Origin: a virus
Lineage: Duplodnaviria > Caudoviricetes
Direction: 5' to 3' (one strand)
DNA length: 64,000 bases
Virus record (IMG/VR): IMGVR_UViG_3300031867_000005
Coordinates: 32,001 to 96,000 of that record
In this document: in pieces, positions 13,684 to 29,400 of the stretch
Position numbering within the stretch: position 1 is the first letter of the stretch
Layout of the letters: each line of letters opens with the position of its first letter
Position numbers and translations under genes: made by a program
The notes under the pieces: generated by a model
What the model was told of the DNA's origin: nothing
Databases searched by the model: none
What the model saw: the letters and a program-made list of their open reading frames with translations, nothing else

Positions 13684-16600
13684 GTGAGTATTCAGAAGAA
13701 AGAATACGAATTGAGTGTTTGGAGTGAAACGCTTGGAGAGCATGGACAAAAAAGTGAAAGAAAGGAATATATTATTGGCGCCCATGATATGGAATATCAA
13801 GGTCGGGCAACTGGCATTAAATTTGTAAAAAAGTTAAATGGAACTCATGAATTAACTTTTTAGATGCCAGATAAATGGTATGATAGTGAGAAAGGAGATT
13901 TTGTAAGAAATGAATTTATTGACTAGCTTTTTAATGAAAGGAAGCTTAAATTACATTATAGAGGAGAATGGTATGAGTTTTATATAAAAAGTATTGCTGA
14001 TGCTAAAAAATTTAAATCTTATATAAAAACTTATACTTGTTCTGATGCTTTCATTGATGAACTTAGTAGAAACGGTTACGGGATTACTTTTGATGAAGCA
14101 TTGTATAACAATGTTGAAGAAATGGGAATTTTTACGGAAGAAATTTTAGAAGATAGTGTTTGGTATTACTCTCCAGAAAACAACTGGGGAGATTTTACTG
14201 AATATTCAGAAGAAAAATTATATAAAATACCTATTAAATTTTTTGATAATTTAGAAGCTTATGAATTAAATTATAATATAGATGATGCAAAAGGACAAAT
14301 TATAAATTTAGTTACTAATGAAAAAAGAGATATTGAAATGGGTGATGACTTAGCTAGAGAAAAAGGCTATTATTGGGATTAGATGAGTAATGATGGTAGT
14401 ATTAAACACCCCTTGATTGGAGAAAGAAAAACGGTTGAAAATGATGGGTATATATATGTTTTTATGTCTTGCCTTGATTTTTGTTATAAGACTACAAGCG
14501 ATGATGGATTAATCGCTACAGAAGAAGTGTAGTATTATGGAGATACTAAAAAATTTGCAGTCGCACCAACATCTGTTGACCCATCAGCTTTAATTCAATT
14601 TATGGCCTTTCCGAAAGATGCTATAATTGAAATTGATGAAGCTGGAATGATTGTTAATAAGGATTATCATTATATAATGACAATCGGCCAATGGAATGAG
14701 TATTTAGAATAGACTAGTGATTATTTTTATAAATTTGAAAGTTTAAGCAATGAAAAAAGGAAATATTTTTTAGCAAGGGGAGAAGCTAATAGCAGAATGG
14801 CTTTATCAGAAAGATAGATTACTGGAAATTGGACTGTATATTATGAAGATTATCTTTCTAAAATCGGTGATACTGATGTTTTAACAGGAAAAAAAATTAG
14901 TATTACAAATCATACTGAAATCAATATTACTGATGAAATCGATTAGTATGTAACTGTTTATAATAATAAAAGTAGTGAGTTTAATGATTTGTATGTAAAT
15001 CCTACTGAAAATTGGAAAGAAGGAGAAAATTAGGATAAAGACTCTTATAATTATAGAGTTTGTTCTGTTAATAAAACAAGATAGATAATTCCTCAATTAG
15101 CTAGAAATTTAGTTGAAAATGCTATTGGAATAAAATCAGAAGACGGATGGGCGGTCGCAGCAACAGTTGATAACATTAATATTGGTTCTACAACAATTAA
15201 ATTTATAAAAAAAGAAAACGAAAATATTGGTTAGCTTGAAATTACTCCTACTAGTGATACAAATGATGACAATAAAAGGTATAGAACTATTATAAATTTT
15301 GGTTTAGTGGGGCAAGAATATGAAATTACTGCGGATAAAATATATTGTATTGGAGTAAAGGGAATCTTTGATGATAATGATAAAGTTATTATTGGAAAAG
15401 GAGGAATGATTTCTTCTGGTGAATATAAAGTAGAAGAAGTTTTTTCGCTTAATTGTTTACAAATAAATAATAATTTTTATTTTATAAAATTTAAAAATAA
15501 TATAAAAAATCCTTATTTTGCTATTCAATTATCAAATAATTCAAAAAGTTTAAGATATATAGATTAGGTTTATTTCTTTGAAGCATATACAAAAGGGATA
15601 GACTAGTTTGGGGAAAAAGCTGTATATAAATATAGCGGCCGAACCATTTTTAATGGTATTTTAGACGGCGTTTCTGGAAATAATAATTTTAGTATAAGTA
15701 GATCATATACCGAAGAAGAAATGAGAGAAAGAGTCATATTTGAAAATGATATAATGCCGGGAGATACCTATGAATATAAAGAATATTTTATTCAATAGCT
15801 ATCTGCAAATTCTTACGTAGCGGACACCTACAAACAAAAAGAATTTTTGTCTCCTGATGCACCTGAATTAGAAGATATTGATAATACAAATTTGAGTTAT
15901 AGAAATTTACCTTATAGCTCAAAAGATTTTACTGATGATGATTTAATTATATCTACTAAATATATTGATTTAAATAAATGTCAATATTATAATTTTAATA
16001 ATGAGCTAAAAGCTTGTGATTGTAGCTATGGCAACAAAGATAATTACAATAAATTTTGTATGTATCAAAAATATGGATATTGTCCTTATTTATTCTAGTC
16101 AGAGAAGCACTGTAGAAAGATTAGAACGTTAAAAGGAGAAAAATCAAATAGATTTAATTTGACTTAGGAAATAGGAAAAGTTTTCAAAGTGTATCCATGT
16201 TACTGGATAAATCACGAGGAAAATGGAAAGACAAAAATAAAAGAAAGAGAAGATAAAAATGGAGAAAAATATGAAATGTTAGATAAAAGAGTGTATTATA
16301 TAACAGAAAAGGGCAAGGAAAATAAATTAGGTTTTAGATATGAAATTAATTTATCTAATATTTCAAGAACGATTAAAAGTGATTAGATTGTGAGTAAATT
16401 ATATGTTTAGGATGTTGATAGTAGTTTATCAAAAACTGGGTTAAGTTCTATTAAAACTGCTCCAGATAATATCTCTAAAGATAGCTTTATTATTGATTTT
16501 TCTTATTATATTGCAAAAGGCATGTTATCTGAAAAACAGGTCTATGCTGATTTATATGGAACTAACGAAGGAGATATGGCTTATTTGAGAAAATTAGGTC

Positions 16601-19515
16601 ATTATAACGAAGAATATGATAAAATTTCTAATTTAATAATAAATCTGTCTTCTCAGTCTTTTACTGAATTGGAAGCTAATGTTAAAGTAAATATAGATGG
16701 CATTGAAGCAGCGCAAAAAGAATTATATAAATTAAAAAAATAGGCAGATAAATATAAAACTCTTAATAAAACTATTGAATTATAGCAAGAAATTAGTAAT
16801 AGTAAACAAGAATTAATAAATAGGTATAATGAAGCATATCAAATGAGTATTTAGCAGATTACAGAAGAAATTAATAGTTATACAGAAGCCTAGAAAGAAA
16901 AATTAAAGGAAAAAGTAGCTGAAAGAACTGCGTATATAAAATGGGCTTAGGAAATGTTAGATAAAGAAATATATAAAAACTATATTTAGCAAGCAGAACA
17001 AATATCAATTGATTTTTCAATTATTAGTAAATTGAAAGATCATAAAGTTCCACTTGATTATATAAATTATTTAGAAGAAGAAACATTAAGAATTAATCAA
17101 TTAATAAATAGTGCCCAAAATCAAACTTATTTAAATTATTTAGTTAAAATTAATGAGCAAGTTGCTATTATAAATTAGCTAACAAAAGAATTAATGTGTG
17201 ATGAAAATTATAATTTTGAAAATTTTTTAAATAATAATGAGACTATTTCTGATAATCTTTATGATAAAATTTTTGGAAATTTACCAATTGCAGATTTTAA
17301 AGAAACGGATTGGTATAAAAAACATACATATTTGAAATACGGAATGCTAGGTCAATATAACAGAGAATACCAACAAATTCAAGAGTGGCGAAAACAATAG
17401 GCTGAACATTTGAAATAGATAAATCTTCTATCTTATAGATTTTTCCAAAAATATGAACCTTATTTAAAAGAGGGAACTTGGAGTGATAGTAATTATTTAA
17501 CGGATAACGCATACTATTTCGGGGCGAAAGAAGTAGCCACATAGGGCGCTATTCCAAAAATTGAATATAACATTTCAGTAATCGATTTACAAGATTTACC
17601 AGAATATGAAGAATATGACTTTGATTTAGCTGATACAACTTATGTTGAAGATATAGGTATGTTTGGAATAAATGAGAAAACAGGATTGCCAAATAGATTA
17701 AAGGTTTTAATTTCTGAAATTTCTTACGACTTAGATTAGCCAAAGAATAATTCAATTAAAGTATAGAATTTTACAACTTAGTTCGAAGACTTATTCCAAT
17801 AGGTTAGTGCTTCTGTTTAGTCACTAAGCTTTAACGAAAATATATATAAACGTTCTTCTAATTTTACTTCAAATCAAAGTATTAAAGAAGAAAGTTTATA
17901 GGGAGCATTAGACAATAATAATGTAACTTTATTAAAAACACAAGAAAATAATATTGAATTAGACGCAGAAGGACAATTTGGAAGTGATATAAATAATCAT
18001 AGCAATAAATATAAATTAAATGGATAGGGAATGTTTTTCTCTAATAATGGCGGCCAAAGTTGGGAAGTTGGTGTTGGTCCTAGTGGTATTAATGCTGATT
18101 ATATAAAAGTTGGAACTCTTGATGCTGGCAAGATAAAAATTGTTGATAATGATTATTTATATTTTTTATGGGATAAAGGTGGCATTTTTTCCTTTAGGGA
18201 GCCATAGTCATAGTCAACAAGTGAAAAAATAAATTTTAATGATTATGCCGTTTTTAATAAACATGGGCTATCATTAATTGAAAATGGAAAAATTAGATTA
18301 AGAGCTGGATATAGTAATGTTGGAGAGAATGGTGTCTATAATGTTGAAGATCCAACAACTGGAAATATAGGTTTTTATTTGTTTGATAATTCAGGAAAAC
18401 CTATTTTTTCTACCGAAGGTTCACCCACTGAAGAAGGTGATAATTATAGTGCTAGAATATTATTATCAGGTGAGATGTTAGCATCGGCGACGGCAAATGC
18501 TAATCAACAAATAGAAACTTTTTATTATACTAAAAAACTTTAGCTTATAACCTTAAATATTAAATACACTAAAACGCAAGAAGAAATTATAGTTGAAAAT
18601 ACAGGAGATCTAGAATCATTAGGCACTGCTAATGTTTTTAATGATACAGAAAAAAGCTCTTTCGTTTCCATAGGACTGCATCGATACAATGATATATATT
18701 GCTTTACTGAAGGTGGTAAGTATTATAAATTATTGATTGATAACAGCGTATATATATATTTTTTGACAACTATCAAAGATGGAGAATTCTATCCACCTGA
18801 TAACCAAGATTTAAGTAATGCTTATGGGATAACTTATTATGACAACAATGGACGGAAAGTAGAAACTTATAAGAATACATCTTATCAATATTATGAAATT
18901 GAAAATAATATTAAGATAATTTTATTAGATCGACATTCAAAGTAGACATCAAGTGGAAATACGACAATTTCAACAGGAGTTTTTATTAATAATAAAATTA
19001 TGAATCCTAATGATACAGATGAAGACATAAGGCTTTTTAGTTGCGTTTCTCTTGATAATAAAAGAAAAATAAATAATCTTTTTACAGTGTATAGAGACGG
19101 TCGCCTAATGATAGGAGGAAATTTTGAAGGAGAAGCTGATGACATAATTTCAATTAATGATAAATTACATTGGGATGAATCTAATTAGAGTAATACTATT
19201 AGAATTAAAGATGGACAAATGTATTTAGGAAACGACTCATTAACGAATATGATTAGTGGAGCTGCGGCAAGTCTTCCTAGGCACAGTCATAGTTTTAATA
19301 GACATAATGATTATTATCGTTTTTCTAATGATGGCAGATCGCCATTAACAGGCGAATATAATACTTATTCAGTCGAGCTTGTGATTCCAATGAAGGATTC
19401 CAATGGCAATCCGGTGAATGATCCCAATAATAATCCCGTAACATCTTCAACAACTTTATATATACATGAATATCTGGACGATAGCACAGATTATACCGGA
19501 GAGATAGGAGGTTAA
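13684..19515 (+). CDS. Large tail/baseplate protein (Tal or central-fibre type), ~1940 aa
   Basis: GTG start with GAGGTG RBS. Nine ORF-track fragments (14101 to 19219) share one frame. Tail-type motif GINADYIKVGTLDAGKIKI; position after Dit. Confidence 0.75.
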
Positions 19516-19518
19516 TTA

Positions 19519-19878
19519 ATGAAAATATTAAGACAACAAATTCAATCACTCTTCTCTACTTTAAAAACTTTTGAATAGAATGAAGATTTTTCAATTTCTA
19601 CAAAATACAAGATATTAAAAATGAAGAAAATATTAGAAACAGAATTAAAATGCAATTTAGATTTATTAAACGAACTAGTAAAAAAATATGGAATGACTTC
19701 AGAAGATGGGGAAATTCTTATAAAGAAAGAATTTATGGATAATGTATCTAAGCAAATTAATGATTTTAACAATGAAGAAATAGAACTTCCAAATTTATAT
19801 TTTACAATTGATGAATTATCAGTTGCAAAAATAAATTGGAAAGACCTCGAGATACTACTGCCATTAATTAAAGATTGA
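19519..19878 (+). CDS. Small phage protein following the tail genes (119 aa)
   Basis: GGAGG RBS; extends ORF 19621 upstream through one TAG. Confidence 0.7.
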
Positions 19879-19903
19879 TTTTGTATAATTTATATAAAAA
19901 TCT

Positions 19904-19960
19904 AAATGACCCGTATGAAAGTTTTTGCTTAAAACATAGAACTTTTCATATGGGTCATTT
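19904..19960. promoter_or_regulatory. Long imperfect inverted repeat between the tail module and the six-gene cassette
   Basis: AAATGACCCGTATGAAAG...CTTTTCATATGGGTCATTT. Confidence 0.5.
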
Positions 19961-20027
19961 TCATTTTATAAACCTCTCTTTTTAAAAATTACTTCTAAGT
20001 GTAAGAACGAAAAAGAGGTGATGAAAA

Positions 20028-20444
20028 ATGGCTTATAATTACAATCAACAGCCACAAAATCTTACACCACAACCTTTTCAACAAAATCAGCAAATGCTGA
20101 ATTAGCAAAATGTACAACCATTATTTCCTCAACCGCAAGGCAATGTTTATAATATAAATTCAACTCTTGAAGTTGCAAATGTCCCTGTGGGTGCTGGAGT
20201 ATCAGTTGCACTTTGCTTGCCTGAAAATGTTATGTATATAAAGACAATGTAGAATGGTAATCCGTTATTTTATCCCTATAAAATAACTCCTTTTACTAAT
20301 GAATAGTCGCAATAGGAAGAAAAACCGCAATCTTCTTCTACTACTATTGATTAGTTAATGGAATAGATAAAAATTTGTAATGATAAAATAAGTAATCTGG
20401 AGGCAAGATTGTCCTCAAAACAAAAGAGAGATGATTTGGTATGA
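20028..20444 (+). CDS. Cassette gene 1: protein with Gln/Pro/Asn-rich N-terminus and C-terminal coiled coil (138 aa)
   Basis: GAGGTG RBS; open only with TAG=Gln; absent from the ORF track. ATGA overlap with the next gene. Confidence 0.75.
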
Positions 20445-20674
20445 TAGAAAATTTAACTCAATTAGTCTAGGTTTTAAGGGGCCGCAATCCCCAGGAAATG
20501 GTCATGACAATGATTTAGAATCAAAAAATTAATGACCCGAACATTACTCAATTAGTTCAATTCGCCTAGAAAGGTGATATGAATAGCTTAGTTAATCTCG
20601 CTAATAACATCTGCGCATAGAGAGGAGTTGATTTTAACTCTGAATTTCAAAACTTTATGTCAATGATGAAATAA
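20441..20674 (+). CDS. Cassette gene 2: small helical Gln/Met-rich protein (77 aa)
   Basis: MIENLTQLVQVLRGRNPQEMVMTMIQNQKINDPNITQLVQFAQKGD...; open with TAG=Gln. Confidence 0.75.
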
Positions 20675-20709
20675 GCGTGAAATATAATATTTTTGGAGGT
20701 TATATAAAA

Positions 20710-21666
20710 ATGGAAGAAAAAGGTTTAACAGTTGCGGACGCATTGGCGTTACGTAATGGAGGAAACAACAACGGTGGCTTTGGCTTTGGAGACGGCTCCG
20801 GTTGGTGGGTTATCATTTTAATCCTCTTCTTGATGTCAGGCTTTGGCGGCCGTGGTTATGGGAATAATGGTGGTGGAGACAATACTAACACTGTTTTTGT
20901 TCCTTATGGTAATGGTGGCTTTGGTGGTGGATACAATGGCGGTTGGAGTCCATGTTGCTCACCAGCTACAGCTCAGGGTGTAACTGATGCTTTCAATTTC
21001 AACGCTTTAGATACCGGTGTTAGAGCAACTCATGAAGCGGTTACTAATGGTTTTTATACTAATAATTTAGCAACTACAAATCTTGGAACTGCAATTCAGC
21101 AATCCTTCGGTCAAGCTGCGTTACAAAATTGTCAAGGCTTTAATGGTGTAACTAATGCAATCAACGGAGTAAACAATACTGTAAATCAGGGTGTAAATTC
21201 TATTCAATCCAGTTTGTGTAATGGCTTTAATAGCGTAAATCAGGGTTTGGCAAATAATGCCTATAAACTTTCTGAATGCTGCTGCGATATGAGACAGTCA
21301 GTAATGCAGTCTAATTTCAATAACCAGACTGGTTTCAATACTATTGGAACAGCAATTGCAACTAATGCTTGCGATATTGAAAGAGGTCAAGATGATATTC
21401 GTTACTTGATGGCTCAAAACTAGAGTCAAACAATGGCAGCAATCGATCATGTTGGCGACCGTCTCATTGACTATATGAACAATAGCAAAATGGATGAACT
21501 TAGAACAGAGCTTCAAAATGCTAAATTCTAGATTTCTTAGGCTGCCCAAACTGATGCAATTATCAATCAGTTGCAGCCAATCGCAAAGCCTTCTTGGCTT
21601 GTAAATTCTCCTTATCAATCCTTAAATTATAACGGCGTAAACGCTTGCGGCTGCGGTAATTTTTGA
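20710..21666 (+). CDS. Cassette gene 3: Gly/Asn-rich protein with a transmembrane segment, coiled coil and Cys clusters (318 aa)
   Basis: GGAGG RBS; GFGFGDGSGWWVIILILFLMSGFGG, PCCSP, LSECCCDMR, C-terminal ACGCGNF. Extends past TAG 21421 to TGA 21664. Confidence 0.85.
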
Positions 21667-21678
21667 GAGGTGATATAA

Positions 21679-22095
21679 ATGGCTTGCCCAAATGTATCAT
21701 GTCTTTGCAATAGATTGATTCTTTCTCAAAGTGTAACTTTTGAAGATGACACTTTATTAATTGATATTCCAGCTGGTTCATACGAAAATGGTGAAAAATA
21801 TTGTCTTGTTATAGCACAAGACATTCCAGTTGAAACAACTATTGCCGCAGATGTTGCGATTACGATAGGTGGAGATACCACAACTACTTATCCTTTAGTT
21901 AATAATAATTGCACAAACGTACAAGCTTGTTCTATAAATACTAGAACTCGTTATGCAACAAGAGTATTTACTAATATTGGAGAGGGAGTTTTTAAATTAC
22001 TTGGAAATATAAACTGCTTTAATTGTCGCAGAAATAATGCGGCCGCAGCATTACCAATTCCGACAGTTGAAGCAACAGGAGGGGAGAATGGATGA
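21679..22095 (+). CDS. Cassette gene 4: Cys-rich, beta-strand-rich protein (138 aa)
   Basis: Intact ORF with GAGGTG RBS; MACPNVSCLCNRLILSQSVTF. Confidence 0.8.
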   Translation: MACPNVSCLCNRLILSQSVTFEDDTLLIDIPAGSYENGEKYCLVIAQDIPVETTIAADVAITIGGDTTTTYPLVNNNCTNVQACSINTRTRYATRVFTNIGEGVFKLLGNINCFNCRRNNAAAALPIPTVEATGGENG

Positions 22096-22604
22096 TGAAA
22101 GAACTTTAGAAAAAAGTTAAAAAGGAACTTGATAATATAGCGGAAAAAGGTATCACCTCTTCTAATCTTGAAGTAACAAACAAACTTGTAGATATTTATA
22201 AAGATATAGTAGAAATTTGTGAAAAAGAATAGGGAGGTGAAAACGGCATGTATGATGCTCGTGGACGTGGACGTGACGGCAGATATAGAGACTATGATTA
22301 CGATGATTATAATGCTCGTGGCAGCCGCAGTGGTAGAAGCTATAATGATTATGATAATTATGGACACTACCCATTGGATGAACGCACTGAAAGATACCTT
22401 ACTAGAATAAGAGAAGGCATGGAAAATTATGATGCTGGTTGTTCTCGTTATAGAGATGGCGGTTCTAATGAAAGAATGGTTGAAGGAATTGAAATGACTA
22501 TGGGTGCAATTGTTAATTTTATTGAATCTTTAATGGATATAGCTGAAACTTCTTAGGAAAAAGAAATCGTAAGAAAATATGTTGATAAAATTAAGAAGAT
22601 GTAA
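22092..22604 (+). CDS. Cassette gene 5: helical protein with an Arg/Gly/Tyr/Asp-rich low-complexity linker (170 aa)
   Basis: ATGA overlap with gene 4; in frame with ORF 22248 through TAG codons; ends TAA 22602. Confidence 0.75.
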
Positions 22605-22966
22605 TGTTTAAATACTATAATGCTAATCCTTTTGGACGATTAGTTAATGATTGTACCGTAAGAGCAATTTCTTTAGCAACAAATCAAAGTTGGGACAAGA
22701 CTTATTAGCAATTATCCGATTTCGCTCGTAAAGAGGGGATTACTTTTTCAGAGATAGAATTTATTAACGATTATTTAGCTGATTAGTTTCCACGTTTTTG
22801 TCCAAAAGAACGGATTTATACACTTTAGGATTTTACAAAATTAAATCTTCCTGGTCGATGGTTAGTAACAATGAGTGGACATATAACTTGTGTAATTGAT
22901 GGAGTATGTTATGATACTTTTGACCCGTCAGATAGATATGTGTGGTGTATATATGAAGTAATATAA
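22604..22966 (+). CDS. Cassette gene 6: putative papain-like cysteine hydrolase (120 aa)
   Basis: TAATG coupling with gene 5. NANP...NDCTVRAISLA and MSGHITCVIDGVCYDTFD supply a candidate Cys-His-Asp triad. Confidence 0.65.
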
Positions 22967-23006
22967 AAAAAAAGAGAGACAGTTTTCTGTCTCTCTCTTT
23001 TTTTTT
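22965..23006. terminator. Bidirectional terminator between convergent modules
   Basis: A tract, GAGAGACAG-TTTT-CTGTCTCTC hairpin, T tract. Confidence 0.85.
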
Positions 23007-23724
23007 AAAATTCAATTATTTCTGTTGTCTTATGTTGATGTACGGCCCAACGACAAATTAGAATAGCGTCTGCTTCATCCTAAGTTACACTAACGTCATA
23101 GAAACGTTTAACTTTTAACTATGCACTCTTTTTCTTATCTGACCTTGTTTTGCCTTTAATTTCTGAGAAGGCCCGCCATGTAGCTGGTGCTACAACAGTA
23201 TATGGGAGATTTTGTTCATAGCAATAGTTCTTTAATACTCCCTATAAGTGAGCTAACTTTTTAAAGGTAATAACCCCTTCACTATTTTCTCCAAACTTCT
23301 AGAGCTAAATGTCTTCGAATATAATCTAATCAGGCTACCATTTCTGTATCATACTGGCAATCCAGTATTTTGTTTTTGCAATTCTCTCTGTACTATGAGT
23401 TCCATCAGAGGTCCATTTTCCATATTTAATAAGTGTGTCATTATCAAACACAGCCCACCCAGAAGTTATACTAGCCTAGTCAAAAGCTAAGATTCGATAG
23501 CCGCTTTTCTTAATAGCGATATTATCAACTTTATAATATTGATTCTATTTACATATTGGACATTCAAAATTACCACGTCTCCATTTTTCATAAGAAACAA
23601 AACATTCATGACCTTCAGGACATACAACCTAAAGGTCAGTTTTTAAATTTACATATTCATTTGAAATCAGTTCCCAATTTTTATTTTTAAAGTTCTATCT
23701 TACTTCTTCAATCTTTATTTTCAT
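23005..23724 (-). CDS. RuvC-like Holliday junction resolvase with N-terminal zinc ribbon (239 aa)
   Basis: RILAFDQASITSGWAVFD (Q encoded by TAG), IIFEDIQ, VTQDEADAILI; N-terminal CPEGH...CPIC. Absent from the ORF track. Confidence 0.8.
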
Positions 23725-23729
23725 TTAAA

Positions 23730-24530
23730 TCAACTCTTGCCAGTGCTTCCGAAGCCTCCTTCTCCTCTTTCTGTCTCATCAAGAGTAGAAACTTCTTTCC
23801 AAGCAATCATAGGAACAGGGGAAATAATCATTTGTGCGATTCTGTCACCTTTAGAAATCTTCTGGGTAAGATTCCCAGTGTTTTCCATGATAACGCCTAT
23901 CTCCCCACGATATGAAGGATCTATTGTCCCAATCGAATTGGCAATTCTTAAAGGAGTTTTATAAGACAGGCCGCTACGTGGCCTAATCTGAATTTCATAA
24001 CCCAATGGAATTGCTACCTTAAGTCCAGTCTTGATAATAACAGTCTTATGAGGTGGAATTGTCACGTCTTCAACAGAATAAATATCAGCACCAGCATCAG
24101 AATCATGAGCGTAAGTAGGGAGTATTGCATCTTCTGAAATCTTTTGAACTTCTACCTCAATTCTTTCTCTAGGATTATCAGCTAAAGAGAAAGTCATTTC
24201 CATTGAACTTTTAATTAAACTAATAATCAAATCTTTTTTATTTTCAGAAAGAGTATCATCTTGACTAACTTCTTCAATAAAGGCGTTCAAAGTTAATTTT
24301 GCGTCCTCACGGTCCTGTTCTGTGATCGGATTTATTTTAGCTACGTTAATAATTTCTTTCTGTAAATCTTGATTCATAAAGAACTTTGTAAGCTGTGGCT
24401 TTAGATGTTCATAAGCCCCATCAAATTCTTTATCTGGCAAATCAAGAATTGTTATCATTTGATTAAAGCTTTCTGCTGAACCAGAAACACTCAATAAGGT
24501 TTTTAAACTCTCTTTTACATTATCTTTCAT
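23730..24530 (-). CDS. dut: Trimeric dUTPase with ~120-aa N-terminal extension
   Basis: Motifs AGADI, RPRSGL, GTIDPSYRGEI, RIAQMI, RGEGGFGSTG. Confidence 0.93.
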   Translation of the reverse strand: MKDNVKESLKTLLSVSGSAESFNQMITILDLPDKEFDGAYEHLKPQLTKFFMNQDLQKEIINVAKINPITEQDREDAKLTLNAFIEEVSQDDTLSENKKDLIISLIKSSMEMTFSLADNPRERIEVEVQKISEDAILPTYAHDSDAGADIYSVEDVTIPPHKTVIIKTGLKVAIPLGYEIQIRPRSGLSYKTPLRIANSIGTIDPSYRGEIGVIMENTGNLTQKISKGDRIAQMIISPVPMIAWKEVSTLDETERGEGGFGSTGKS

Positions 24531-24544
24531 TTCAGTTTTCCTCC

Positions 24545-25276
24545 TTAATTTAAGATTTCTACAATTTCATCAATAACACCATATTTTAAAGCCTCTTCAG
24601 GATTCATAAACCAGTCATTCTTTTTTACATTTTCATACTGCTCTGGTGTAATGTCAGTATTATCAATAACAATATCCTTTAGTCTTTCTAATTGAGCTTT
24701 ATAATGATCAACTCTTTGAATAAATTTATGGGCATCGCCGCCATCCATTGCAGACCCCTCATGGAACATATAAGAACTATAGGGGAAACCATAACGTTTG
24801 TGTCCGTTAATAGCAATGAAGAATCCTCCACTATAAGCATTTCCAATTACATATGTGTGAACAGGAGTTTTAGATAATCTTATTGAACTAATAATACTAA
24901 AAGTTGCATCCAAATCTCCACCAGGGGTGTTGATATAGATATTAATAGGTTTTCTTTTTTCTGCTGGTATTTCATCTAAATCGTCTACTTTATTCCAAAA
25001 TTTTAAAAGTTCAAAAACACTATTTGCATGAGACATTTCAATTTCTTCAGTAAGAAAAACTGCCCTATCCATAAAGTCAAAAGATTGAAGAACTTCTTCT
25101 GGGTTAATTTGATTTTCTGGATCAATAAAACTTTCAAAGGCACTTTGCTCCTCATTATTTTCTTCCATCTCTTCGATAAAAGAATCATATATTTCTTCGA
25201 CATCTTTTAAAAATTCTTCTTTACTTTTAATTTCTCCACTCTCGTTAGTGAATGAGATTTCTTTTTCTTTAGTCAT
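24545..25276 (-). CDS. ClpP-family serine protease
   Basis: IYINTPGG, AYSGG (Ser), MFHEG (His), NDWFMNPEEALKYGVIDEI. Start reassigned to MTKEKE after GAGGAGG. Confidence 0.85.
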   Translation of the reverse strand: MTKEKEISFTNESGEIKSKEEFLKDVEEIYDSFIEEMEENNEEQSAFESFIDPENQINPEEVLQSFDFMDRAVFLTEEIEMSHANSVFELLKFWNKVDDLDEIPAEKRKPINIYINTPGGDLDATFSIISSIRLSKTPVHTYVIGNAYSGGFFIAINGHKRYGFPYSSYMFHEGSAMDGGDAHKFIQRVDHYKAQLERLKDIVIDNTDITPEQYENVKKNDWFMNPEEALKYGVIDEIVEILN

Positions 25277-25445
25277 TCTTAAGTTCCTCCTCAAGTTCTT
25301 TTTTCTCTTTTTGCAAATCGTATATTTCTTTTACTAATTCCATTATCTTTGGGTCATAGACAAAGGTTTCAATTTCAATTTTATTCAATTCTTTTTCTTT
25401 CTAATCTAAACAAAAACATACTTCTTCATATCTTTTTTTATCCAT
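25269..25445 (-). CDS. Small coiled-coil hypothetical protein (58 aa)
   Basis: GAGGTG RBS, one TAG; downstream of a consensus promoter. Confidence 0.55.
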
Positions 25446-25469
25446 TTTATCACCTCTTTACATATATAT

Positions 25470-25498
25470 ATTATATCATAAATTTTTATAAAAGTCAA
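25470..25498 (-). promoter_or_regulatory. SigA-type promoter
   Basis: TTGACT-N17-TATAAT with TG extension. Confidence 0.75.
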
Positions 25499-26411
25499 GA
25501 TGAGAATTATTGATTTTTTTAGGGTCTTGTTTTAAAAGTAATCTAATTTTAGAAGATATATTTTCAGGAATCGCCCCATTATATTTTTCAAAAGATTCAT
25601 TCGTATTAGTTCTTATCCACTTAAAAATTAATGAAATAATTTCATCATATTCATCATAAATATGTGAATAGAGAACTTTCCCTTTAGCTTTATAAAAAAG
25701 TCCCATTTTAATAATTCTTTGCTTATAATTTTCAAGTGTCTCATCTTCTCTTTTTTTAAGATTATAAATAACTTTGTTATTTTGAATATTATCAAAGAAG
25801 AAATCTTCATTAAATCTAAAGTCTATTAAATAATGATTATTGATTATATTCATAAATCTTTCAAACTTATAAAAGGTTTCGGAATCTTTTATAATTAAAG
25901 GGTAAGCAAAGAAATAAGTATGATTTTTAAATTCTAGTAAACAATCATACGCATTTTCTTGGTAGAAGAAATTATGATCAATAAATACCATATTTCTTGC
26001 TTCCTTTTTATAATCTAAAAAATCATTTGATTCAAGCCTAATTAATGAACTTTTTTTAAGCTAATCGTAACTTCTTACAATTTTTTTTAATTTATAAGAA
26101 TAAAGGTCATAGGGTTCATAGTTAAGTCTTGTTTTTTGAATTTCTTCTGATAACATTGTATATTTGTTATAGAATCCATAGCCATAGGTTTTCTTTTTAT
26201 TATCATTTAAAATTAATCGTCTGGGAATTTGAGTATTGGGATTATCTTTAAAATAAACAATCTTATTAAAACGCCCTTCATTATCATCAGGTCGCATCAT
26301 TATTACTATATGTCCTTTCTGTTTATAGTAATTATAAACTTTCATTAGTTCGAGATTAATAACAGACTTATGACCGTGCCATAAATCTATATCATATAAT
26401 CCTAGTGTCAT
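25476..26411 (-). CDS. Hypothetical protein (311 aa); N-terminus resembles phage radical-SAM-associated proteins
   Basis: ORFs 26061-26411 and 25476-25991 join through one TAG. LGLYDID...NLELMKVYNYYKQKGHIV; no CxxxCxxC motif seen. Confidence 0.6.
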
Positions 26412-29400
26412 TCTTCCACCTCAATTCTCTCTGTCGCTGATTTAGTAATCCATCCTTTATCATCAATTTCAATAACTTTTTCGAACAGCGGCCACTCTGT
26501 ATTTTTATACTTTTTAGGAATGAAACTATCTCCTCTTTTTATTCCTGTTATAATTAATTTTGTTCCTCTTTGAAACCAACTCTTTTCTAAAATATGTTTA
26601 ACTCCATCAGACCCTCTTTCAGAAATTTGCTTATCCCAAGCTGCAAATTGATTCTTCCAGACCTTTACTGTTATAGCTCCAGTAGGTGTTAATAGAGTTA
26701 CAGAACTGTGATTTTTGTCCTTATCAATTACTGTCCCCGCAATTCTTACAACTTTAAAAATTTTAATTTCAGTTCCGTCTTTCGTTATAAAAGTTCTTTC
26801 AATTTCCGGTTCTTCCTTTAATTTCGTAATATCTACTATTCCATAAATATCATTATGAAGTTTTTTTAATTCATGGTCATGGTAATAGAAACCTAAGCTA
26901 TCCATTTCCCACTTTGAAAGATTTCCTTCTGCATATTTTTCGTAAGTTTCATTAAATAATTTATTGTTTAGGGCTACCAATATTTTTTGCTGATTTGCTT
27001 TCATCCAATCTCTAACTGGGGTCATTCCTTTCTTGTAAATATTATCCCATGTTAATTGCTTAATCTTTGCTGTTTGTTCTTCTCCGTTTATTTCAATATC
27101 TTCCAACTTGGTGTCGTCAAAATTATCTAAATAAAATTTCATAGCAATTGAATCTAAAAGATAGTAGTTTCCTTTCTTGAAATTCTTAAGATATTTGTTG
27201 AAGTTAAATAATCTACATTCAAATCGAAGTTCTATTGGGATTAGGTCTTTGGATATTAACATTTGCATATTTTGAAGTGTGATTCTTTTCTTTTGGTCTG
27301 ATACTTGAAGGAGATATTCATTCATTGCTTTAAGTCTATCGTCGTTATAAAGGCTGTCGAAAGCTCCGCTTTTTATTAAGGAGACCATTTGAGTTTTATT
27401 TACTTTAACTTTTGCTAAAAAATCTTCTATTGAGATATAAGGTCTATTATTAATTATATCCTTTACAAGTTGATTTCCTACTCTTGTAATACCACGAATA
27501 CCATAAAGAATTGTATCATTCTTTATATCCGGAACAAAAGTAATAGATGATTTATTTATATCTGGAAGAGAAAACTTTATTCCATTTACTTTTGCTCGGC
27601 CTATTGCGGCTGCAAGTGCTCCGTAATCTGTAGAAGAGTTTTCAAGCTTCTCTTCATCATCTTCTTCTTCATTATCTTTATTTATTTTATCATTTAAGTT
27701 CATTGCTCCTGAATCAACAATTAGATTAGCTGTATTCCAAAATATAATTGGAAATTTATAAGCCAAATTCATTTCCTGTAAACCAATTATTGAATACGAA
27801 AGAGTGTGTGCTAAATTAAAACCATAACCACGTGATGTGCACACTAATACCTGCCAAACATAGCGACAAAAATTCTTACTTAAATGTTTTTCTTCCATTA
27901 CTTTATAATATTCTTCTTGTAATTTTTCAAAAGCTTCTGGATTCTTTTTTGCGACCGCTTTTCTGAGTTGATCACTCCATGCCAATGAAAAACCACCAGC
28001 CTCGGGCATTTGAACTAATTGCATAAATTTTTCTTGTGCTTCACAGATTCCACTAGTTTCTAATAGGATAGGTTCTAACAGTTTCTGTTCTTCTTTGTCT
28101 AACCCATAATTTTCCATTTCATTGTACCATTCTGATATATTCTTTTTAAATCTAGCAAATTTATCAATCGGCTGTTCAGCACCTTTTTCTTGAACCATTA
28201 AACGAATAACTGAATTTAATGTTGCTAATTCTTCAAGTGTTGTAGGCTTTACTGCTTCAATACCCTTTATACCACTTGATTCTTCCATCTGGAATAGGCT
28301 TTCAATTTTGTGTTCGTGTATCATTTTCCACATTTCAGGTGATGTTCTGTCTATATTATAAACCCCAATAGTTCTTTCGTAGCGTTCTCTTAGTGAGAGA
28401 GTTGAATCTATATAACCGTAATCAGTTAATAAGTCTAAACAAGCTCTCATTCTATCTAACGCTTCGATTGATAACAGATCTATTTTAATAAGACTAACTT
28501 CTTCACAAGTGTGTAAATCATACTGGGTTACAACATCTCCATTTGTTGTCTGCATTAACGCTGTTGAATTGATTATTGGTTCATCATAAAAGATTACTCC
28601 CCCAGCGTGGCTGCCTACACCGCAGCAAAGTCCTTCAATTCTTTGTGCGACTTTCCAAACTTCTGGATAATGATTCATCATTAAGTCTTGAAACTTTAAG
28701 TCTGGCTGTATGTCATTTTCTAAATCTCCATAAAAAGTTTGAGCTAATGTTCTAGCTTGTCCTCTATCACTTTTTATAAAGCTAGCTAAATATGAGGCTT
28801 CGTCAGGATCAATCTTTAATCCACGACAGGCAGTTAATAAAGCTGACTTACTTTTTTCTGTACGTATTGTCAACACTTTTGATACTCTATCACTTCTATA
28901 AGTGTCTTGTAATGCCTTATAGACTTGTGGTCTTTTTCCTCCTTCTATATCAGTATCTATATCCAATACAGAAGCTCTCTCAGGATTCAAAAAGCGCCAA
29001 CTCCTAAGTGGAGCTTTCTCTCTTAAGGGGTTAATTTGAGTTATGTCCAACATATTTAATAATAAGAAGCCACCACCTGAGTTGTGGACCGCTGAACCAT
29101 TTATTACATAAGAATGAATATTTTCAACTGATAAATCATAAACTTTTCCATTATATCTTTCTATATCTATAGATTCAATAATTGTATAAAAGCAATTTTC
29201 ATCTTCTAAATAATCTTGCCTAGAAAATTTTTTATCTTTCCTTATTTTTACAAGAGGAAAATCTTTTATAAGTTTAGTTAATTGTTTTCCGGAGGCTGTC
29301 CATTTATAACTAATATGCCATCCTTCTTGAACATTTGTTCTAGCTTTAAAGTTCCCATATATACCAATTGAGGCCCATAATAACTGAACTTGTTTAATTA

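Follow-up and report, generated by a model that had tools for sequence, protein, structure and literature searches.

A co-inherited, dispensable six-gene phage cassette built around a predicted membrane-anchored coiled-coil protein

The six-gene cassette and its boundaries

The window analyzed here, a stretch of 64,000 nucleotides (nt) corresponding to bases 32001-96000 of a 178,685-bp phage record (IMGVR_UViG_3300031867_000005), carries on its + strand a cassette of six close-packed genes (g1 to g6; positions 20028-22966) that lies between a conserved hairpin and a bidirectional terminator. TAG codons were translated as glutamine (Gln) throughout. The cassette and its boundary elements, in window coordinates, are as follows.

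19897-19967, + strand: hairpin followed by a T-run, with 24-nt arms (19897-19920 and 19944-19967) and a conserved apical motif, TTTTGCTTAAAACATAGAA
19990-20027, + strand: conserved leader containing a GAGGTGA ribosome binding site and a presumed promoter
20028-20444, + strand: g1, 138 amino acids (aa), 6 TAG codons; Q/P/N-rich N-terminus, small beta region and C-terminal helix
20441-20674, + strand: g2, 77 aa, 4 TAG codons; helical
20710-21666, + strand: g3, 318 aa, 3 TAG codons; stalk protein, phrog_16490
21679-22095, + strand: g4, 138 aa, no TAG codons; Cys-rich eight-strand beta protein with a disordered A/P/T-rich tail
22092-22604, + strand: g5, 170 aa, 3 TAG codons; phrog_28802, with helical ends and an R/G/Y/D low-complexity middle
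22604-22966, + strand: g6, 120 aa, 3 TAG codons; phrog_3754, predicted stand-alone cysteine peptidase of papain fold
22964-23007, both directions: bidirectional intrinsic terminator, common to the cassette and the convergent RuvC gene

A first-pass annotation of this DNA had described six tightly packed open reading frames (ORFs), partly hidden by recoding, between a long inverted repeat and a terminator, and each of these elements was recovered. The g1/g2 and g4/g5 junctions are ATGA overlaps and the g5/g6 junction is TAATG; translation of the block with table 11 returns fragments only, whereas reading TAG as Gln yields six complete ORFs. The recoding is considered real because the long neighboring tail genes, of 1943 and 1938 aa, are open only when 39 and 56 TAG codons, respectively, are read through; the 1943-aa product is a distal tail protein, and the tape-measure remnant and Dit contain 56 and 12 TAG codons. 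The start of g3 was assigned to the ATG at 20710 rather than the GTG at 20677, since homologues begin MEEKGL and a GGAGGA sequence sits 8 nt upstream of this ATG.

The hairpin at the upstream boundary folds at -25 kcal/mol (z -7). The outer stems of 13 relatives differ in sequence, yet each of these hairpins has a folding energy between -17.5 and -29.7 kcal/mol (z between -4.7 and -9.1) and a T-run on its 3′ side. RNAalifold found no common pairs in a fixed alignment of the hairpins because the stems lie in different registers, and folds of the individual sequences were used instead. Between the tail genes, the last of which ends at 19515, and the cassette lies a 119-aa gene (phrog_1401); given the conserved terminator hairpin upstream of g1, the tail operon ends before the cassette begins. 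An alignment of 38 upstream regions revealed a conserved YAC-N7-9-TG-N-AAGA element and GAGGTGA before the ATG, and a scan for a σ70 promoter of the cassette gave 22 sites against the 18.5 expected from shuffled sequence, none of them a usable promoter.

A variant of a 19-nt motif (TTTTGTGCAAAAAGTAGAA, with the palindromic core TTTTGnnCAAAA) forms the apex of the hairpin before the cassette (19923-19941). The motif itself is found near the right end of the phage genome, at 171095-171113, 173343-173361 and 176413-176431 of the full record (G000:C1), where it sits 15-35 nt upstream of three near-perfect σ70 promoters (TTGACA, a spacer of about 17 nt, TG-n-TATAAT) that drive small hydrophobic proteins. 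The shared motif may reflect a common operator or regulator.

In a bovine-gut metatranscriptome (run X2), one contig of 3,178 nt (depth 42.6) spans 20017-23194 without a mismatch; its first base lies 11 nt 5′ of the g1 start codon, and it extends over the six genes and past the terminator. The regions beside the cassette (15000-20016 and 23400-27000) have no contigs or tiny ones of low depth in this RNA run, which was available as contigs, so that its uncovered parts prove nothing; the DNA run X1 covers all of these regions evenly. The contig supports the presence of the cassette in RNA as a block and, with its nearly bare flanks, gives no more than a hint of separate transcription.

The 3′ neighbors of the cassette, on the opposite strand, encode a RuvC-like resolvase (23005-23724, - strand; with an N-terminal Cys-rich extension, also matching HNH/endonuclease PHROGs), a dUTPase and a ClpP-like protease. 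The RuvC-like gene contains 11 in-frame TAG codons (4.6% of its codons, the highest density seen nearby), and the dUTPase and ClpP genes adjoining it contain none. The first-pass annotation had called the cassette late-expressed, a view for which the TAG codons are the sole basis; the unit is, however, insulated from the tail operon by the terminator, the one RNA contig found is that of the cassette, and non-structural genes here, such as the RuvC-like gene, contain TAG codons as well.

Occurrence and dispensability of the cassette

A search with g3 found 21 IMG/VR loci in which g1 to g6 occur in one order next to the RuvC, dUTPase and ClpP genes. A second sample, independent of the cassette, consisted of 80 loci fetched via the neighboring RuvC gene; most of these have the full set, five are without g6, several have fragments only, and many remoter relatives have none of the genes. 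The description of the block as self-contained is therefore borne out by a gene order shared among the 21 loci and most of the 80, and the condition under which the first-pass annotation would have been refuted, a failure of the genes to occur together in other genomes, does not hold. Close relatives of the whole cassette also occur in two contigs (L040 and L042) from metagenome-assembled genomes (MAGs) labeled uncultured Clostridia, in which the cassette genes have few or no TAG codons; thus, one lineage has the module in both recoded and standard-code phages. A search of a phage collection with the cassette at the DNA level gave no match.

Comparison of sister genomes revealed clean losses of all or part of the unit. 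L047 lacks the whole cassette that is present in its sister L048 (L048:8949-11855), and the flanks of the two are 94-97% identical; L061 lacks 1.85 kb carrying g3 and g4 relative to L060 (flanks 92-94% identical), and L086 lacks 1.5 kb carrying g3 and g4 relative to L085 (flanks 80-86% identical). The cassette is therefore dispensable, which excludes an essential part of the tail, head or lysis machinery.

Profile hidden Markov models (HMMs) built from the loci found with g3 were used to detect the core of the cassette in distant phages, where it takes the following forms.

bajarodcaudo virus 2: g2-g3-g4-g5 between the portal and capsid genes, and g6 at a separate genomic site
Dulem virus 35: g6, g2, g3 and g5 between the portal and capsid genes
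Dulem virus 33 and MAG contig L041: module between the endolysin and integrase genes
L035: module after the tail fiber gene
L036: module between the tail fiber and major capsid genes
Clostridium perfringens phage CPD1 and L032: g3-g4, in CPD1 among non-structural genes
L043: g6, g2, g3 and g5
crAss-like phages and Bacteroides uniformis phage C3_41T2LP: g3 and, next to it on the 3′ side, two genes that match g4 and g5 in size; in C3_41T2LP these lie among non-structural genes

Where g2 is present it is always directly 5′ of g3, and its HMM matches adjoin g3 in bajarodcaudo virus 2, L033, L034, L036 and L043. The unit thus behaves as morons do, being present in one and absent from the other of near-identical genomes and occupying differing sites in unrelated phages; no constant place in a structural gene module was found across the carriers, the sites of which include the vicinity of lysis and integrase genes, non-structural genes, and tail or capsid genes.

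Extra DNA of 0.6-1.4 kb is found inside the cassette in L036 (L036:5690-6361, - strand), Dulem virus 33 (L028, 20861-21412) and L010 (6817-7980), and between g2, g3 and g4 in L075, L076 and L109. Two of the inserts are opposite-strand genes, of which that of Dulem virus 33 bears an endonuclease annotation; the g2/g3 and g3/g4 junctions seem to be targets of homing-type elements.

Predicted properties of the cassette proteins

Sequence searches of the cassette proteins against Pfam, NCBIfam, PADLOC and PDB gave no match above threshold, and no standard family of virion, lysis or replication proteins was matched, in agreement with the first-pass annotation. In PHROGs, g3 matched family 16490 (E 9e-22), g5 family 28802 (4e-18) and g6 family 3754 (9e-23), all of which are annotated "unknown function"; g1 had no family match in Pfam, PHROGs or the other libraries searched. 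The best PADLOC score of g3, to the ZorA tail (E 0.01, 12.6 bits), is a likeness at the level of coiled coils only, and no defense model was matched. Literature and database searches found no name for any of the cassette families, the PHROG numbers and DUF7841 yielding no relevant paper. In ESM Atlas, a 95%-identical public homologue of g3 and the g4 protein led to unnamed viral clusters only, and the 2,242 matches to the g3 family in public metagenomes (E ≤ 0.001) include none that is named.

The g3 product is composed, in order, of an N-terminal peptide (GLTVADALAL), a Gly arm, a hydrophobic core (W32-F45, nt 20803-20844), a second Gly arm, a coiled coil and a head of fixed length that contains CCC (nt 21277-21285) and a terminal CGC (nt 21646-21654). 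All of the motifs that had been reported for this protein (Gly-rich arms around a hydrophobic segment, CC, CCC and a terminal CGCG) are present in the g3 of the window. Features kept as far as the crAss-like and clostridial homologues are the N-terminal G-L-T/S-x-A-D-A-L-A-L with the Gly-rich arm that follows it, a hydrophobic core (11-15 residues) flanked by Trp and Gly, the second Gly arm, the heptad-repeat sequence, the invariant CCC, the motifs LRTELQ..Q.SQ..QT and RPxPxPAY..SPY, and the terminal CGC. The hydrophobic core lies inside about 19 uncharged residues between flanking charges, so one membrane span is feasible, and the amino acid sequence places this segment most likely in the cytoplasmic membrane. 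The flank on the N side of the core is acidic (KR 0.9, DE 2.0) and that on the C side slightly basic, charges that lean weakly to an N-out/C-in topology.

The spacing of conserved motifs in 104 homologues of g3 reveals a rod of quantized length. The distance from DAFNF to CCC is 79, 83, 90, 97, 101, 104, 112 or 123 residues, every one of which equals 90 plus or minus a multiple of 7 or 11, and the distance from CCC to LRTEL is 74 residues without exception; an a/d heptad pattern is readable in residues 145-185. Length steps of 7 and 11 residues indicate a continuous alpha-helical coiled coil, made up of heptads and hendecads, that is adjustable in length and carries a fixed head. The earlier proposal of a coiled-coil protein with a single hydrophobic anchor is thus supported by the sequence of g3 and by the periodicity of its rod. 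In a profile search of PDB, g3 matched only residues 9-90 of influenza HA2 (E 0.011, 18 bits), a marginal score that reflects likeness in heptad composition and is at most an analogy; the labels "spike glycoprotein" and "viral fiber" that depositors have given to g3 homologues stem from this HA2-like composition. Both g3 and HA2 have a Gly-rich hydrophobic segment followed by Asn-rich heptads; g3 differs from HA2 in lacking both a membrane anchor at the C-terminus and a receptor-binding subunit.

Among the partners of g3, g4 is the most conserved, with a mean column identity of 68% and six conserved Cys residues in an alignment of 40 sequences. Its AlphaFold2 (AF2) model, with a predicted local distance difference test (pLDDT) score of 77.6, consists of an eight-strand beta domain with disordered ends. 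Weak matches of this model in PDB include a baseplate/fiber chain of Pa193 (Z 5.2) and a capsid spike of Pa223 (Foldseek E 0.04), at scores too low to distinguish true relatives from common beta-sandwiches. The first matches in BFVD are stand-alone phage proteins, including those of crAss-like phages, and these are followed by many C-terminal domains of predicted tail-fiber, receptor-binding and collagen-like proteins (E 1e-5 to 1e-3, TMq 0.41-0.52). For g5, 147 relatives were found at E ≤ 0.001, with no functional name among the 120 listed. The gene at the position of g5 in a distant version of the cassette (L035:7948-8577) matches Pfam DUF7841 (26.1 bits; cut-off 25.2), and a DUF7841 protein of a crAss-like virus is among the fold matches of g4; beta-sandwich proteins may replace one another at the partner positions. 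Direct reading of the N-termini found no signal peptide or lipobox in g1, g2, g4, g5 or g6, so these proteins are expected to be made in the reducing cytoplasm, and the disulfide crosslinking proposed in the first-pass annotation is unsupported. No transporter was found in or beside the cassette.

The AF2 model of g6, based on 54 diverse homologues, has a pLDDT of 96, and all 50 matches listed by VIA-align are papain-like hydrolases. The top matches are the C39 domains of PCAT1, ComA, a Vibrio transporter and LahT150 (Z 5.8-6.5), among them PCAT1 7s5j (Z 6.5, root-mean-square deviation 3.5, 99 residues aligned) and ComA 5xe8 (Z 6.4); the next are the pseudomurein endoisopeptidase PeiR, Josephin-type deubiquitinases and staphopains, and weak Foldseek matches to Tae4, Tse1 and OspI are of the same fold class. 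D16, R20 and D104 do not vary among the 54 homologues, and the conservation of C17 and H93 is at least 90%, the putative catalytic residues being C17 (nt 22652-22654), H93 (nt 22880-22882) and D104 (nt 22913-22915). The assignment of g6 as a Cys-His-Asp enzyme, made earlier from the sequence, agrees with the modeled fold and these conserved residues, and g6 is confidently predicted to be a minimal Cys-His-Asp hydrolase of papain fold that is closest to the C39 double-glycine peptidases. It resembles the C39 domains of ComA, PCAT1 and LahT150 (Z 6.2-6.5) in that it is small, has a papain-like fold and carries Cys, His and Asp in like order and at like spacing (C17, H93 and D104, compared with C17, H96 and D112 in ComA). 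Unlike these domains it is a stand-alone protein, not fused to an ATP-binding cassette (ABC) exporter, and has a conserved N-x-N-P in place of the oxyanion Gln. The Pfam C39 models match neither g6 nor any of its 54 homologues at E values up to 0.1, and neither a double-glycine substrate at fixed spacing nor a linked exporter was found for the cassette.

The g6 family has over 1,000 cluster representatives. Genes g3 and g6 occur together in at least 4 of 31 g3-bearing phage records, and g6 occurs in 170 of 50,697 records overall; g6 alone is found among the early genes of PAK_P1-like Pseudomonas phages, Tsamsa-like Bacillus phages and Lak phages. As judged from this distribution, the tie between g6 and the cassette is real but loose. 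The first-pass annotation had proposed that the cassette includes its own processing enzyme, a proposal with no more than loose support, g6 being absent from some otherwise complete cassettes, distant from the rest of the cassette in one phage and often on its own. Two candidate g6 cleavage sites, in the N-arm of g3 and in the tail of g4, failed conservation tests. The second of these, a C-terminal "GG plus 2-4 residues" considered as a ubiquitin-like site, holds in the closest subfamily only; the remaining g4 proteins linked to g6 have endings such as TTTTP and TEVNE, and the g4 tails of cassettes without g6 show no matching pattern.

Candidate roles of the cassette

The interpretation favored here, and held tentatively, is that the cassette is an optional accessory unit that acts at the cell membrane, the exclusion of competing phages being its most plausible use. 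This interpretation follows from the movement of the block between unrelated phages, its moron-typical sites, its clean loss, its insulation, the membrane-anchored rod predicted for g3 and the lack of export signals in the partner proteins. The cassette would be a horizontally mobile element akin to morons, transcribed as a terminator-bounded unit of its own and set apart from the tail, head and lysis machinery. At its core would be g3, in which a short acidic N-terminal peptide and a Gly/Trp-flanked segment in the cytoplasmic membrane would be followed by a coiled-coil rod, of a length set in whole heptads or hendecads, that ends in the length-invariant, Cys-studded head. The proteins that travel with g3, namely g2, the predicted beta-sandwich g4 and g5, probably bind it, and the complex would be assembled from the cytoplasmic side, as these partners have no export signals; g6, the C39-like cysteine peptidase, would be a frequent but not constant attachment to the module. 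The complex would then alter the envelope of the infected or carrier cell, most plausibly to block competing phages or to guard the membrane.

Exclusion proteins and other morons, such as Ltp of TP-J34, Sie2009, gp15 of HK97 and lom/bor of lambda, are optional, mobile, terminator-bounded and membrane-acting, and their genes sit after tail or lysis genes or beside the integrase gene. The cassette is analogous to them in being optional, mobile and terminator-bounded, in the sites that it occupies and in its predicted action at the membrane; it differs from them in having five to six genes, a long rod and an enzyme in place of single small genes, and no homology to them was found. Several considerations weigh against a role in exclusion at the membrane. 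Exclusion systems normally consist of one or two genes, not five or six, and no characterized homologue bears on the function of the cassette. The insertion of g3 into the membrane is predicted from its composition, and the RNA evidence is one contig-level run, which reveals neither strand, ends nor level. Suppression of TAG in recoded phages usually marks late genes, and five of the six cassette genes need it, as late genes usually would. Finally, the fold of g4 weakly resembles fiber tips and the cassette is often beside tail-fiber or capsid genes, both of which fit an optional fiber.

Such a fiber or virion decoration would consist of g3 as a trimeric shaft docked by its greasy N-terminus (like reovirus sigma1), g4 as the knob, and g1, g2 and g5 as adaptors or chaperones. 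This alternative is judged unlikely, and it stays alive because of the BFVD matches of g4 to tail-fiber, receptor-binding and collagen-like C-terminal domains, which are at the level of fold only. It is also consistent with the weak match of g4 to the Pa193 chain, with the "viral fiber" or "spike" labels of g3 homologues, with the position of the cassette after tail-fiber genes or before capsid genes in several phages, and with a rod length that is quantized as in fibers; optional fibers are moreover dispensable, in keeping with the losses in sister genomes. Against it, the module lies after the lysis genes and by the integrase gene in Dulem virus 33 and L041 and among non-structural genes in CPD1 and C3_41T2LP, and it is found alike in phages of siphovirus, crAss-like and other architectures. 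The Gly-flanked hydrophobic segment of g3 resembles a membrane span, the upstream terminator insulates the cassette from the tail operon, and the PDB matches of g4 are too weak to tell relatives from common beta-sandwiches.

An accessory role in lysis or release is more doubtful. Here g3 would act as an i-spanin or as a partner of a T4-type holin or antiholin, and the small proteins would tune the timing of lysis or the disruption of the envelope. The outline of g3 is that of Rz-type i-spanins, with an N-terminal membrane anchor, a long coiled coil, conserved Cys and a Pro-rich C-terminus (RPxPxPAY); the module is directly 3′ of the holin and endolysin genes in Dulem virus 33 and L041, and in cr52_1 it adjoins a gene annotated as LysB/FtsL-like. 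Unlike Rz, however, g3 has no lipoprotein partner (none of the other cassette proteins has a lipobox or signal peptide), is twice the size, shares no sequence similarity and, together with g4, occurs in phages of the single-membrane host C. perfringens, which need no spanin; sister phages also thrive without the module. In the genome of the window, the cassette is at 52-55 kb and the lysis functions are at 98-104 kb, so that the endolysin genes and a holin-like gene are 46-52 kb away. The candidate that the cassette is the canonical lysis cassette was rejected, as genes for that function are located in this distant region (G000:C1 98319-104037; L005, L004), where they are dispersed among fiber-like genes.

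Within G000:C1 98319-104037: 92-aa coiled-coil protein
Within G000:C1 98319-104037: GH25 lysozyme, 256 aa, without TAG codons
Within G000:C1 98319-104037: Amidase_2 protein, 399 aa, 6 TAG codons
Within G000:C1 98319-104037: M15-like peptidase, 175 aa
G000:C1 103708-104037: holin-like gene, 109 aa, two transmembrane segments

It is improbable that the cassette serves to make a product processed by g6, in which the C39-like enzyme would cut the Gly-rich N-arm of g3 and so release a bacteriocin-like peptide or expose an end resembling a fusion peptide, as in influenza HA0. The folds nearest to g6 are double-glycine leader peptidases, g3 starts with a conserved amphipathic peptide followed by GG-rich sequence, its profile weakly matches HA2, and the co-occurrence of g3 and g6 (given above) exceeds the overall frequency of g6. 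As a double-glycine leader, however, the N-terminal peptide of g3 was not supported: the first GG stands at differing distances from the conserved ALAL in different homologues, and the hydrophobic residues are not spaced in line with the -4/-7/-12/-15 rule. An ABC exporter is absent, g6 is missing from several cassettes that have all of g1-g5 and is abundant among phages that do not carry g3, and the HA2 match reflects shared heptad composition. Equally hard to credit is a related and bolder reading, in which g3 and its partners would form a trimeric stalk, equipped with a membrane-active peptide rich in Gly, heptads like those of HA2 and a head stapled by metal or disulfides. Primed by the C39-like protease, this stalk would remodel or fuse bacterial membranes or gate the entry of DNA; if true, it would be a new phage membrane machine used in phages of both Firmicutes and Bacteroidota.

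The model of the first-pass annotation, a disulfide-crosslinked layer of spore-coat or exosporium type in the phage of a spore-forming host, has next to nothing left in its favor: the composition of the proteins is like that of cross-linked matrix proteins (Gly/Tyr-rich, CCC, CGCG, R/G/Y/D low complexity) and phages of C. perfringens, a spore-former, carry some of the homologues, but g3 homologues also occur in crAss-like phages and a phage of the non-sporulating B. uniformis, the Gly arms of g3 are not GXY collagen repeats, the cassette proteins have no export signals, and no spore family turned up for any of them, nor was a BclA or C1q fold among the structure matches listed for g4, which does not by itself exclude a family that is not listed.

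An accessory unit at the membrane thus remains the favored, if tentative, account of a module that spans crAss-like phages, small temperate siphophages and 180-kb recoded rumen phages and that has no named member, structure or phenotype. Natural sister phages with and without the cassette (L048 and L047) offer a ready-made comparison. The change in rod length by whole repeats suggests that a defined distance from the membrane matters, and the gain and loss of a conserved multi-gene unit as a block probably reflect strong ecological selection, for example through competition between phages or persistence in the gut.

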